From IMG/VR virus record IMGVR_UViG_2861079508_000003, positions 1 through 39,249 of that record: DNA of 39,249 nt, one strand, 5' to 3'. Under the pieces are notes generated by a model. It was not told the DNA's origin and searched no databases. It worked only from the letters and a program-made list of their open reading frames with translations. The stretch is from a virus. Taxonomy: Duplodnaviria > Heunggongvirae > Uroviricota > Caudoviricetes. This document shows, piece after piece, positions 6,693-10,484 of the stretch. A program made the translations under genes and the position numbers. Every line of letters starts with the position of its first letter. Within the stretch, counting starts at the first letter, position 1.

Positions 6693-7001
6693 TTACCTCG
6701 CTGTAACCTGCTTACTTGTACGATGACCAGCTGCGAAAAGCGCAACTTCTGGCAAACAAACGCTTCCGCTATTCGCATCTGTATTTGATTTGCTAATGAT
6801 GCCGAGTGATATTGCTTTTTCAGAAATGCTTAAACGCTTTCTCGGGGCTTCCTGAACAGGTTCCTCACTGTCTGTGCCGAAGATCGAATCGATGATGTTG
6901 CATATAGCATCACGCTCGATAGCCAGCTTTCTGCGCCGCTCATGACGGCGAGTTTTGGCATTTCCTGCAAATGTTGATTTTCCGTACACGATTACCGTCA
7001 T
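6693..7001 (-). CDS. N: Antitermination protein N, P22 gene 24 type (102 aa)
   Basis: From ATG at 7001: MTVIVYGKSTFAGNAKTRRHERRRKLAIERD.. carries the Arg-rich motif and closely matches recalled P22 gp24; nutL lies upstream. Confidence 0.8.
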   Translation of the reverse strand: MTVIVYGKSTFAGNAKTRRHERRRKLAIERDAICNIIDSIFGTDSEEPVQEAPRKRLSISEKAISLGIISKSNTDANSGSVCLPEVALFAAGHRTSKQVTAR

Positions 7002-7120: not shown

Positions 7121-7154
7121 GCGCTTTGTCAGCGCCCCATCGAAGTTAAAGAGC
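7121..7154 (-). promoter_or_regulatory. nutL (boxA GCTCTTTAAC plus boxB hairpin GCGCT-GACAA-AGCGC)
   Basis: Read on the minus strand, a boxA-like sequence is followed 9 nt later by a 5-bp stem with a GACAA loop, between PL and N; matches P22-type nut sites from memory. Confidence 0.6.
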
Positions 7155-7200
7155 CTGCCAATCTGTTCCGTTTGGCTTCCAGCTTCCTGCTGATGGCTAA

Positions 7201-7229
7201 ATAGTACGATGTGTACTTTATTGAGTCAA
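7201..7229 (-). promoter_or_regulatory. Putative PL promoter (-35 TTGACT, 17-bp spacer, -10 TACTAT on minus strand)
   Basis: Sigma70-like hexamers upstream of nutL/N, overlapping an operator dyad. Confidence 0.5.
7203..7217. promoter_or_regulatory. Operator-like dyad in OL (AGTAC-GATGT-GTACT)
   Basis: Perfect 5-bp inverted half-sites with 5-bp spacer, overlapping the PL -10; near-identical copies occur in OR. Weaker related sites near 7228-7242 and 7262-7276. Confidence 0.5.
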
Positions 7230-7302
7230 TACAAAATGTTCTAAATGTGGTTGGTTTTTTATAACACTTTGTATTTTATTGATTTATATTTTGGAAAAAG
7301 AA

Positions 7303-7324
7303 AACCCGACGCTAAGGTCGGGTT
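7303..7324 (-). terminator. Rho-independent terminator downstream of the repressor gene
   Basis: 8-bp stem AACCCGAC/GTCGGGTT with 6-nt loop, followed on the minus strand by TCTTTTTCC; about 30 bp past the cI stop. Confidence 0.55.
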
Positions 7325-7354
7325 ATTGTTGTGTGTTTTAGAGTGGTGAGGCTG

Positions 7355-8014
7355 TTAACTAAATGTCTCTTCAGGCCACTGGCTGGCGATAACTTTCCCT
7401 ACTACGGAACAGCTATCATTGCATGGGATCATTGGATATTGCGGGTTTAGTGGTTGTAGGAACACCTGACCGCTATCCCTGATCAGTTTCTTGAAGGTAA
7501 ACTCGTCACCGCCAAGTCTGGCTATGCAGAAATCTCCTGGCTCAACAGCCTGCTCAGGGTCAACGAGAATTAACATTCCGTCAGGAAAGCTTGGCTTGGA
7601 TCCTGTTGGTGCGGTCATGGAATTACCTTCAACTTCAAGCCAAAACGCACAATCACTGGCTTTTTTGGTTGTGCTGACCCATCTCTCCGCATCACCTTTG
7701 GTAAAGGTTCTAAGCTCAGGTGAGAACATCCCGGCCTGAACATGAGAAAAAACAGGGTACTCATATTGTTTTTTAACGGGGGCAGATGAGTATTCGCCAG
7801 CAGGTGAAAATGTACCGTCGTGGTTGAATGAGACGTTATCAATACCAAGGTATTTAAACACCACACCAATCTCGTCAAGAGATGGATGACGAGATCCGCG
7901 CAACCAGTGACCAATTCCACCCTGCGTCATACCAAGCTCTTCAGCTAACTTCTCTTGAGTTATGCCGAGCTCTTTCATTCTGGATCTAGCCAGTTCATAC
8001 CATTTCATTTTCAT
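7355..8014 (-). CDS. cI: CI-type prophage repressor (HTH N-domain, LexA/S24-like autocleavage C-domain; 219 aa)
   Basis: N-terminal HTH (..[21 protein letters not shown]..) and C-terminal domain with ..[22 protein letters not shown].. as in P22 C2 / lambda CI; divergent from cro across an operator region. Confidence 0.85.
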
Positions 8015-8023
8015 ATCCTTATT

Positions 8024-8038
8024 ATTACGCTATGTACT
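8024..8038. promoter_or_regulatory. Operator-like dyad in OR (ATTAC-GCTAT-GTACT)
   Basis: Matches the OL site at 12 of 15 positions; close to the repressor start, consistent with a PRM-proximal operator. Confidence 0.4.
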
Positions 8039-8070
8039 AAAACCATCCATGCACAAGATGTATTTTTTGT

Positions 8071-8099
8071 TTGCATTCCAAAAGTACATATCGTATTAT
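8071..8099 (+). promoter_or_regulatory. Putative PR promoter (-35 TTGCAT, 17-bp spacer, -10 TATTAT)
   Basis: Sigma70-like hexamers about 30 bp upstream of cro (RBS GGAG at 8117); spacer and -10 overlap an operator dyad. Confidence 0.5.
8083..8097. promoter_or_regulatory. Operator-like dyad in OR (reverse complement AATAC-GATAT-GTACT)
   Basis: 13 of 15 identical to the OL site, in inverted orientation, overlapping PR. Confidence 0.5.
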
Positions 8100-8125
8100 T
8101 GTTTCATGGTTACTATGGAGGGCAT

Positions 8126-8341
8126 ATGAGCAACCTACGAAAATATCGAGAGTCACTGAATATCTCTCAAACAACACTTGCTAAGGCAGTTGGATGCACA
8201 CAGGGAGCTATCGGACATTGGGAATCTGGTCGTCGCTTCCCAGACCTTAAAACATGCCGTGCTCTTGTTGCGTGCCTAAACAAGTTAGGCGCAAAAGTCA
8301 GTCTTGATGACGTGTTCCCGCCGGAACACAAAGCCGCTTAA
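8126..8341 (+). CDS. cro: Cro-like HTH regulator (71 aa from ATG at 8126)
   Basis: Short XRE-type HTH protein (..LNISQTTLAKAVGCTQGAIGHWESG..) divergent from the repressor, with RBS; the track's longer form has an implausible N-terminal extension. Confidence 0.8.
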   Translation: MSNLRKYRESLNISQTTLAKAVGCTQGAIGHWESGRRFPDLKTCRALVACLNKLGAKVSLDDVFPPEHKAA

Positions 8342-8450: not shown

Positions 8451-8747
8451 ATGGAACAAACAAGTTACAGCAAACTATCACAGCGCGACGTTGATCGCGC
8501 AGAAACAGATTTACTCATCAACCTGTCAACGCTTACCCAGCGCGGTCTGGCAAAGATGATTGGCTGTCATGAATCGAAGATAAGCAGAACGGACTGGAGA
8601 TTTATTGCTTCGGTCTTGTGTGCTTTTGGAATGGCATCAGACATCAGTCCGATTAGCAGGGCTTTTAAGTATGCGCTTGATGGACTCACCAATAAAAAAC
8701 GCCCGGCGGATATTTTCGCTGAGAATCAGTTAACCATGAATTTTTAA
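8451..8747 (+). CDS. cII: CII-like transcriptional activator (98 aa)
   Basis: ..CHESKISRTDWRFI.. and ..GLTNKKRPA.. parallel lambda CII (..DKSQISRWKRDWI.., ..ILTNKKRPA..); position after cro/nutR. Confidence 0.8.
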   Translation: MEQTSYSKLSQRDVDRAETDLLINLSTLTQRGLAKMIGCHESKISRTDWRFIASVLCAFGMASDISPISRAFKYALDGLTNKKRPADIFAENQLTMNF

Positions 8748-8757
8748 GGATGGTCTT

Positions 8758-9186
8758 ATGACTCCGTGTTTGGAATTTGGCGGTTTAAAGGACAGCAAGG
8801 GTTATGGAAGGGTTTGGATTAATGGGAAAAAAGTATTTGCTCATAGATTTGCTTATTGTGTGGCAAAAGGGATCCAGCTTGAAGATATAGATGGCTTAGT
8901 AATTCGTCACGCATGTGACAATCCTTCTTGTATTTTACCTTCTCATTTATGTGCTGGGACAAGTCAGCAAAACGCAAATGACATGGTGGAGAGAAAAAGG
9001 CAGGCATTTGGAAGCAGGAATGGTAGGGCAAAATTAACTGAAGATGATGTAAGAAACATCATTAGTGAATATATACCAAGACACCCCTTATTCAACACAA
9101 GGGCATTATCAAAAAAATATGGAGTAACGCCAAATTATATAGCTGCTATTTGCAGAGGTGAAAAATGGAAGCACATAAAAAAATAA
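8758..9186 (+). CDS. HNH homing-endonuclease-like protein (HNH_3-type core plus C-terminal HTH; 142 aa)
   Basis: ..SKGYGRVWINGKKVFAHRFAY..VIRHACDNPSCILPSHLCAGTSQQNANDM.. fits the HNH_3 pattern; inserted between cII and the replication genes. Confidence 0.7.
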   Translation: MTPCLEFGGLKDSKGYGRVWINGKKVFAHRFAYCVAKGIQLEDIDGLVIRHACDNPSCILPSHLCAGTSQQNANDMVERKRQAFGSRNGRAKLTEDDVRNIISEYIPRHPLFNTRALSKKYGVTPNYIAAICRGEKWKHIKK

Positions 9187-9536: not shown

Positions 9537-10484
9537 ATGAGCAATACAGCAAAAATCTACGATTTCAGCGCCGCACACGAGCGCAGGAGCAACAGGATGG
9601 AGAACCAGAAAACTGGTTACATTCCGTTGTACCGGAGCATTCTGAAACAGTCATGGGCGAAAGATGTTTATCTTCGCACCCTGTGGGAAAACCTTCTCCT
9701 GAATGCCGCCAGAAAGCCATACAAAGCGAATTTCAAAGGTCATGAATGGCATCTGCAACCCGGTCAACTGGTTGTGACAGCAGCTGATTTAGGTCTTCAG
9801 TTATGCGACAGGCATGGCAAGCCGGCAAGCCGTGATCAGGTTGAGCGGATGCTTCAGGTTTTTGTGAAAGAGGGGATGATCTCCATTGATGGAGAGAAGC
9901 AAAAAGGTCGTGTGATCACCATCACAAATTACCATGAATACGCTCAAAAAATGGACAATTCACCCGCACATGAAGCCGCACAAACAACCGCACATGATGC
10001 CGCACATGATGAAACCAGTAATGGCGCGGCATTCAGCGCACATGCCGCACATGAAAGCGCACATGAAGCCGCACAAACAACCGCACATCATGAACAAGAA
10101 GGTATTAACAAGAATATAAATAATACCCCCCTACCCCCCAATGGGGGAGGCGATGGGCAGGTTAAACCTGAACGTCGCAAGGCAGAACGAATCGACTATG
10201 AATCCTTCCTGAACGCCTACAACACCGAAGTCGGTGACAGACTGCCACACGCTGTTGCGGTCAACGAGAAACGCAAACGCCGCCTGAAGAAAATCATCCC
10301 GCAACTGAAAACGCCAAACGTGGACGGTTTCAGAGCGTATGTCAGGGCGTTTGTACATCAGGCCAAGCCGTTTTACTTCGGAGACAACGACACGGGCTGG
10401 ACAGCTGATTTTGATTACCTGTTGAGGGAAGATTCGTTAACTGGAGTACGGGAAGGGAAGTTTGCAGACAGGGGGATTGCATGA
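9537..10484 (+). CDS. O: Replication initiation protein (lambda O / P22 gene 18 type; 315 aa)
   Basis: N-terminus [10 protein letters not shown].. parallels lambda O (MTNTAKILNF..); contains an internal iteron array and AT-rich block as in lambdoid ori; followed by a coupled helicase gene. Confidence 0.75.
9964..10092. repeat. Replication-origin iterons: about 9 copies of a 12-bp unit (CCGCACATGAAG and variants), then AT-rich block and GC-rich palindrome (about 10093-10150)
   Basis: Tandem 12-bp periodicity visible in the DNA, encoding the [10 protein letters not shown].. repeats; iterons, AT-rich stretch and palindrome are the lambdoid ori arrangement. Confidence 0.6.

Follow-up and report, generated by a model that had tools for sequence, protein, structure and literature searches.

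Six predicted CI/Cro operators of the VT2-Sakai (Sp5) immunity type in a P22-like, non-Stx Escherichia coli phage

The immunity region described here lies in a virus sequence of 39,249 bp (IMG/VR virus record IMGVR_UViG_2861079508_000003, Caudoviricetes), the whole of which is called the window. The list of open reading frames (ORFs) and the Pfam domains exposed a lambda-style gene order, which includes N, the leftward promoter and operator (PL/OL), a terminator, cI, the maintenance promoter, rightward operator and rightward promoter (PRM/OR/PR), cro and cII, as shown in Table 1. The cI and cro genes are divergent and enclose OR in their intergenic interval (8009-8125), while the second operator, OL, is located at PL upstream of N. 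The full operator set comprises six sites, namely OL1, OL2 and OL3 in 7203-7275 and OR3, OR2 and OR1 in 8024-8097. These very probably serve as operators in a bistable CI/Cro switch of the lambda type, at which we infer binding with the specificity of VT2-Sakai (Sp5), the main Shiga toxin 2a (Stx2a) phage of O157:H7 Sakai.

Table 1. Genes, promoters, terminator and predicted operator sites of the immunity region (window positions; bits are position weight matrix scores).
Feature	Position	Strand	Sequence or elements	Remarks
N	6693-7001	-		N_peptide, E 3e-38
PL	7201-7229	-	-35 TTGACT (7229-7224), 17 bp, -10 TACTAT (7206-7201)	consensus scan, 9 of 12 matches; predicted to drive N
OL1	7203-7217		AGTACGATGTGTACT	AGTAC-GATGT-GTACT, perfect dyad; 20.6 bits, best matrix match of the window
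OL2	7228-7242		AATACAAAATGTTCT	AATAC-AAAAT-GTTCT; 17.0 bits
OL3	7261-7275		ATAACACTTTGTATT	ATAAC-ACTTT-GTATT; 16.9 bits
Intrinsic terminator	7303-7324	-	8-bp stem, then T-run	just downstream of cI
cI	7355-8008	-		217 aa from ATG 8008; 219 aa from in-frame ATG 8014
PRM (predicted)	8021-8049	-	-35 TGGATG (8044-8049, reverse complement), 17 bp, -10 TAATAA (8021-8026, reverse complement)	
OR3	8024-8038		ATTACGCTATGTACT	ATTAC-GCTAT-GTACT, 1 mismatch; 16.2 bits
OR2	8050-8064		TGCACAAGATGTATT	TGCAC-AAGAT-GTATT; 10.6 bits
PR	8071-8099	+	-35 TTGCAT (8071-8076), 17 bp, -10 TATTAT (8094-8099)	predicted to drive cro and cII
OR1	8083-8097		AGTACATATCGTATT	AGTAC-ATATC-GTATT, 1 mismatch; 19.1 bits
cro	8126-8341	+		HTH_3, 71 aa, all-helical
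cII	8451-8747	+		Phage_CII

The dyad AGTAC-N5-GTACT was searched for on both strands of the whole window, with 100 dinucleotide-preserving shuffles as control. With at most one mismatch, three matches were observed against 0.53 expected, a count reached by none of the 100 shuffles, and these are the sole such matches in the 39,249 bp. They correspond to OL1, OR3 and OR1, exactly the three related sites reported in an earlier reading of the window from its letters (the original prediction), which had also held that the dyad is common to OL and OR, as it is; a similar frequency of the motif elsewhere in the window was not seen at this threshold. When two mismatches were allowed, no window-wide enrichment was detected (7 matches vs 8.1 expected), and among the weaker relatives only OL2 stands in that list; because this count is at chance, weak sites cannot be called by pattern alone. 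The position weight matrix (PWM), made from the six annotated VT2-Sakai sites and independent of the window's own sites, placed OL1, OR1, OL2, OL3 and OR3 as the top five matches in the window (20.6-16.2 bits), with the best match elsewhere at 11.4 bits and a mean of the maximum scores in mononucleotide shuffles of 12.8 bits, and the scan revealed no credible operator elsewhere in the window. Across the 12 half-sites the consensus reads A-(G/A)-T-A-C, in which the A of position 4 and the C of position 5 never vary, and that of the whole dyad reads A(G/A)TAC-N5-GTA(C/T)T. The weaker sites OL2, OL3 and OR2 are judged real by their position and conservation, and by homology too, and the tripartite operators with weaker relatives that had been suggested are borne out in this way and not by pattern alone.

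The immunity module of the window, as identified by sequence comparison, is of the VT2-Sakai/Sp5 type, which is also that of Stx2-II, Nil2, 2851 and 1717. In megablast searches against phage records, cI-cro-cII was about 93-94% identical to many Stx phages, including Stx2 phage II, the Stx1 phage of Morioka V526, Nil2, 2851, 1717 and PA-series Sakai-type phages, and the OL stretch also matched VT2-Sakai itself. Cro is identical to that of VT2-Sakai (71/71, 100%), and CI is identical in 208 of 216 residues (96%), with residues 1-44, including the helix-turn-helix, unchanged. The six operators occur in the same order, with 11 of the 12 half-sites identical and spacings of 25/33 bp at OL and 26/32-33 bp at OR, and PL, PR, PRM and the terminator after cI are in matching places. 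The differences comprise all six 5-bp central spacers (by 1-2 bases each), one OL3 half-site (ATAAC in the window, ACAAC in VT2-Sakai), the centre-to-centre distance from OL1 to OR1 (880 bp in the window vs about 2.29 kb, the window being without accessory genes between cI and OL), the flanking N/nutL, which is P22-type and not 933W/H-19B-type, and the backbone, which is that of a P22-like podovirus without stx. Thus, the comparison with other lambdoid operator sets proposed in the original prediction led to a match; its suggestion of a distinct immunity specificity stands in that the half-site A(G/A)TAC differs, as it had said, from those of lambda, 434 and P22, and falls in that the type is not new.

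The operators and promoters of the Sp5 immunity type are already known, and the finding is correct but ordinary. The records of this type include AP000422 and AP000363 (VT2-Sakai) and AP005154 and AP005153 (Stx2 phage II and the Stx1 phage of Morioka V526). GenBank AP005154 and AP000422 annotate six 17-bp 'putative operator' features, which on alignment are the homologues of the window's six sites (the OL1 homologue in AP000422 being the 'putative operator' at 9894-9910), together with a 'putative major leftward promoter', a 'putative major rightward promoter', a 'putative maintenance promoter for cI' and a terminator after cI. PL has the same position as the leftward promoter of AP000422, where the equivalent of the terminator at 7303-7324 is labelled 'putative rho independent terminator for pRM transcript'. 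The same six 17-mers are given for the Sakai-type Stx2a phage in Table S5 of Yin et al. 2015 (PMC4587872), which credits the three OL sites of Sakai to Fattah et al. 2000 (Genes Genet Syst 75:223). The six VT2-Sakai operators were also synthesised by Sedhom and Solomon and assayed only with lambda CI (PMC9803871, PMC10742460); the gel shifts gave apparent dissociation constants of 3.7-6.4 uM vs 0.2-3 uM on lambda's own sites (Sedhom and Solomon 2023), and were set aside as support, being uninformative on cognate binding. A literature search for the operator strings returned no match. The result therefore carries little weight as a discovery, as the genome papers on VT2-Sakai and Stx2-II already annotated the operators, promoters and genes, which later work took up again.

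OL1 covers the -10 and spacer of PL and OR1 those of PR, the final 4 bp of each site lying inside the -10 hexamer (the TATT of OR1 forms the first four bases of the PR -10), OL2 abuts and overlaps the PL -35 at its upstream edge, and OR3 covers the spacer and -10 of the predicted PRM. The overlap with the -10/spacer of PL and PR that had been claimed for all three strong sites thus holds for OL1 (PL) and OR1 (PR), whereas the site at 8024-8038 is OR3 and overlaps PRM. The scan output for PR was given as TTTGCA-18-TATTAT, and PRM was read from the sequence following the annotation of AP005154, with a predicted start near the first cI ATG. Relative to this predicted start OR2 is centred at about -43, and relative to that of PR at about -49. 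A further promoter-like sequence, ATAACA-18-TATATT at 7261-7290 (+), overlaps OL3 and points to the 3' end of cI, and the number of promoter-like matches in its region is within chance expectation. The cI frame has ATGs at 8014 and 8008, with an AAGGA Shine-Dalgarno sequence well spaced only for 8008, and the -10 TAATAA of the predicted PRM puts the transcription start at about 8014. It may be, speculatively, that the PRM message is leaderless as in lambda, and transcripts from the promoter for repressor establishment (PRE) would use the Shine-Dalgarno sequence and the 8008 ATG.

Differential conservation was observed for the different parts of the operators among close relatives. An IMG/VR scan with Cro gave 80 loci, all with identical Cro, which together with the loci fetched earlier represent 37 distinct OR and 30 distinct OL sequences. 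Variable columns made up 4/30 of the half-site columns in OR and 5/30 in OL (9/60 together), 5/15 and 6/15 of the spacer columns (11/30 together), and 27/66 and 41/75 of the other non-site columns (68/141 together); half-sites against other columns gave a Fisher p of 7e-6, a value to be taken as a guide and not as an exact probability, since the loci are related to one another. The half-site changes seen swap one accepted half-site for another, such as GTACT to GTATT in OR3. Both half-sites of OL1 were unchanged in 30 of the 30 aligned OL variants and both of OR2 in the 37 OR variants, OR1 was conserved in all loci, and the PRM stretch AACCATCCATGCAC was nearly invariant in the 37 OR variants, with one variable column. 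Four loci (L048, L052, L053 and L055) had seemed to be without OL within 3.4 kb, a candidate absence that was rejected when the PWM scan found OL in them, with OL1 carrying the single substitution GTACT to GTGCT; two of these, L053 and L055, also have the OR1 spacer changed from ATATC to ATGTC. The four may be operator-weakened or decaying prophages.

The spacing between the sites followed two patterns. The distance from OR3 to OR2 was 26 bp in 84 of 84 loci and that from OL1 to OL2 was 25 bp in 70 of 70 loci, while OR2-OR1 ranged from 31 to 34 bp, because the T-run that separates OR2 from the PR -35 differs in length among the loci, and OL2-OL3 from 32 to 34 bp. The OR pattern of 26 and 33-34 bp persists in other genera. 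The distance between OL and OR varied from about 0.9 to 2.5 kb across the loci because different accessory genes lie between cI and OL, and the window represents the minimal version of this interval.

The repressor encoded by cI contains an HTH_3 domain (E 8e-11) and a LexA-like Peptidase_S24 domain (E 9e-29) in Pfam, and from residue 82 to residue 217 it matches the C-terminal domain of lambda CI (PDB 3bdn, 8gmu) at about 98% identity, the VQAGMF cleavage region included. A mosaic joint is visible within cI, residues 1-80 belonging to another type of helix-turn-helix domain, which has no long N-terminal arm, and the CI of VT2-Sakai is built alike. The identity of its sequence with the CI proteins of lambda and VT2-Sakai is enough to settle its fold and family. 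The recognition helices of CI (TQGGIGHW) and Cro (TQGAIGHW) are near-identical, and helix 2 of CI, TQEKLAEEL, aligns with SQESVADKM of lambda, with acidic residues kept at lambda positions 34 and 38. The lambda positive-control mutants, together with this alignment, are the basis for the role given to the acidic patch (Glu34, Asp38).

More distant relatives were recovered by a protein search with Cro, which gave homologues of 60-82% identity in Citrobacter, Enterobacter, Klebsiella, Serratia, Cronobacter, Salmonella, Pantoea and Sodalis, nearly all of which keep the recognition helix (T/S)QGAIGH(W/Y). Six genomic contexts were fetched (Cronobacter, Serratia, Sodalis-like, Citrobacter and metagenomic relatives; Cro 61-80% identical), and the repressor helix is kept in five of the six, as KTQGA(I/V)GHWLNG in four and as MTQGGVGHWLRG in the Citrobacter locus. 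Four of the five helix-keeping loci have the OR dyads ATTAC-N5-GTA(T/C)T, (C/T)G(C/T)AC-N5-GTATT and AGTAC-N5-GTATT at offsets of 26 and 33-34 bp; only two OR dyads were seen in the Citrobacter locus because its annotated cI start lies further upstream. At OL the helix-keeping loci carry two or three dyads of the AATAC/GTACT type, the first pair 25-26 bp apart, and no comparable dyads were found downstream of cro in the fetched contexts of these loci. Across the six-way alignment, invariance of intergenic columns is essentially confined to the half-sites, TTGC (PR -35) and TATT.T (PR -10). The sixth relative has the helices SQSRIGNYE (repressor) and TSSRISNYE (Cro) and dyads of the ATCAC-N5-GTGAT type, so that helix and half-site change together, as expected if CI and Cro read these sites. 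The Cronobacter repressor, the sole one aligned in full, shows an overall identity of 43% and has a C-terminal domain unlike that of lambda, which indicates that the operator geometry goes with the DNA-binding module and not with a lambda-type C-terminal domain. The comparative data represent a clean phylogenetic footprint defining the half-site A(G/A)TAC.

A switch of the following kind is predicted when binding, affinity order, cooperativity and PRM activation, all taken from the lambda paradigm, are laid over the sites, promoter placement, selective conservation, protein domains and VT2-Sakai identity observed here. In the lysogen, CI dimers would occupy the 15-17-bp dyads of the above consensus, blocking PL from OL1 and OL2 and PR from OR1; from the weak OR2 at about -43 CI would stimulate PRM through the acidic patch of helix 2, and at a high repressor level it would turn PRM off from OR3. 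The lambda-like C-terminal domain would supply dimerisation, pairwise cooperativity and possibly OL-OR looping over 880 bp, and RecA-stimulated self-cleavage would take place at its conserved Ala-Gly. The terminator at 7303-7324 would end the PRM and PRE transcripts ahead of OL. After induction, Cro made from PR would bind the same sites and lower PRM; that Cro should bind the sites of CI is expected because the recognition helices are nearly the same.

Several observations weigh against this account. In lambda the neighbouring operator sites are all 20-24 bp apart, while OR1 and OR2 are separated here by 33 bp centre-to-centre, vs 24 bp between these two sites in lambda; OR2 therefore lies off the PR -35, and a lambda-style cooperativity between OR1 and OR2 cannot be assumed. 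The PWM score of OR2 is at background and does not set the site apart; it is conservation that argues for OR2 as an operator, an intrinsically weak one by its sequence, in which the left half deviates. PRM was placed by analogy, matches the consensus weakly and was absent from the consensus scan output, the conservation counts come from mutually related loci and hence not from independent samples, and the literature search turned up no experiment on binding by the cognate CI or Cro. The background score of OR2 would also suit a switch in which only some of the sites are functional, such as a two-site OR with OR2 as a relic, or CI and Cro acting on different subsets, with a logic unlike that of six-site lambda, and other Stx phages do depart from three plus three sites (933W has two OL sites and H-19B four OR sites). 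This is nevertheless improbable, as the half-sites of OR2 are invariant in the 37 variants, OR2 is retained in other genera, still 26 bp from OR3, and the OR2 centre at about -43 from PRM is in the position expected of an activating site.

The overlap of OL1, OR1 and OR3 with -10 hexamers and of OL2 with a -35, and the invariant 25- and 26-bp spacings, which match promoter geometry, would equally be seen if the conserved blocks were promoter elements (-10, -35 and UP-like A/T tracts) of PL, PR and PRM and the dyad symmetry were incidental. However, the promoter-distal halves are equally conserved and every site is a dyad of the same 5-mer, OL3 and OR2 are without a PL or PR hexamer (OL3 overlaps only the chance-level hit at 7261-7290 (+)), and the half-site changes when the recognition helix changes, which leaves such an explanation very little credit. 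It is hardly conceivable that the dyads are bound by another factor, such as the host regulator LexA, or are restriction-type palindromes (GTAC, AGTACT) whose retention or avoidance has some unrelated cause: the strong half-sites each contain the palindrome GTAC, which is about 2-fold under-represented in the window (77 occurrences vs 152 expected from base composition, 4 of the 77 inside operators), but several sites are without GTAC (AATAC, ATAAC or TGCAC halves), the sites travel with cI/cro through different phage backbones, and they bear no likeness to the LexA box CTGT-N8-ACAG. The six sites as CI/Cro operators of the VT2-Sakai specificity thus remain the preferred reading.

Compared with other switches, the region shares with lambda the divergent cI/cro around a tripartite OR, the tripartite OL at PL, the ends of OR1 and OL1 within the -10 and the position of OR2 at about -42/-43 from PRM; in a 17-bp framing the half-site also shares A2, A5 and C6 (TAGTAC here vs TATCAC in lambda, a comparison drawn partly from general knowledge). 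It differs from lambda in the DNA-binding domain, the recognition helix (QGGIGHWLR vs QSGVGALFN) and the half-site, in a CI without the long N-terminal arm, in an all-helical HTH_3 Cro and in being without rex genes. As in P22 C2 and 434, the repressor and Cro are both HTH_3 (434-Cro-like) and have common dyad operators, and Cro shows a weak similarity to the DNA-binding domain of P22 C2 (E about 0.009); the half-sites are different (the P22 and 434 consensus being taken from general knowledge) and the similarity is at the family level only. The phages 933W and BAA2326 likewise have lambdoid Stx-phage CI/operator systems, with different repressors and operator sequences, 933W having only two OL sites, and those two have been footprinted.

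The Koudelka and Friedman laboratories proposed for 933W/BAA2326 that the relative occupancy of OR2 and OR3 sets a low repressor level and easy induction. In the region described here, the weak OR2 might be aided by OR3 rather than by OR1, joining PRM activation to auto-repression and keeping the repressor low, although we regard this as doubtful; the ordinary alternative is that the fixed 25- and 26-bp spacings merely reflect the geometry of PL and PRM. If true, the OR2-OR3 pairing would be a switch wiring unlike that of lambda and could be part of the reason why Stx prophages are reported to be easily induced.

The nearest whole-phage relatives of the window are Dewey, HZ41, IME10 and CUS-3, which match 40-50% of its first 25 kb at about 97% identity, and the module is carried by a P22-like, non-Stx E. 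coli phage or prophage. The 1.3-kb core was found at a coverage of at least 80% in 184 of 5,426 complete E. coli genomes, and the cI/cro module with its sites occurs in different phage backbones, P22-like here and Stx phages elsewhere. One genome labelled E. coli DH5alpha (NZ_CP026085.1, L004; 4.83 Mb) contains a complete-looking P22-like prophage with an immunity region 99.7% identical. Such a prophage is unexpected in DH5alpha and suggests a mislabelled strain or a newly acquired prophage; a phi80 origin, considered because of this match, was ruled out, as the annotated genes of the context (ninB-ninH, abc-like, Erf/Rad52-type and ssb) are those of a P22-like prophage. A non-Stx P22-like E. 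coli phage thus shares its immunity module with the main Stx2a phage of O157:H7 Sakai. Prophages with this module should be homoimmune with Sp5-type Stx phages, and homoimmunity could affect superinfection by these phages, their induction and toxin output.

At the left of the region, N has an arginine-rich motif, GNAKTRRHERRRKLAIER, which we take to be P22-type, and an exact GCGCTGACAAAGCGC stem-loop is located at 7121-7135 (-), presumably the nutL boxB of P22. The homology to VT2-Sakai begins only near 7180, which places the left edge of the exchanged immunity module between nutL and OL1. At the right, an HNH_3 endonuclease ORF of 142 aa at 8758-9186 (+) (Pfam E 9e-7) stands between cII and O (9537-10484) and probably represents the insertion of a free-standing endonuclease of the homing type; a small DUF2740 gene occupies the place of this ORF in the P22-like prophage that was inspected.

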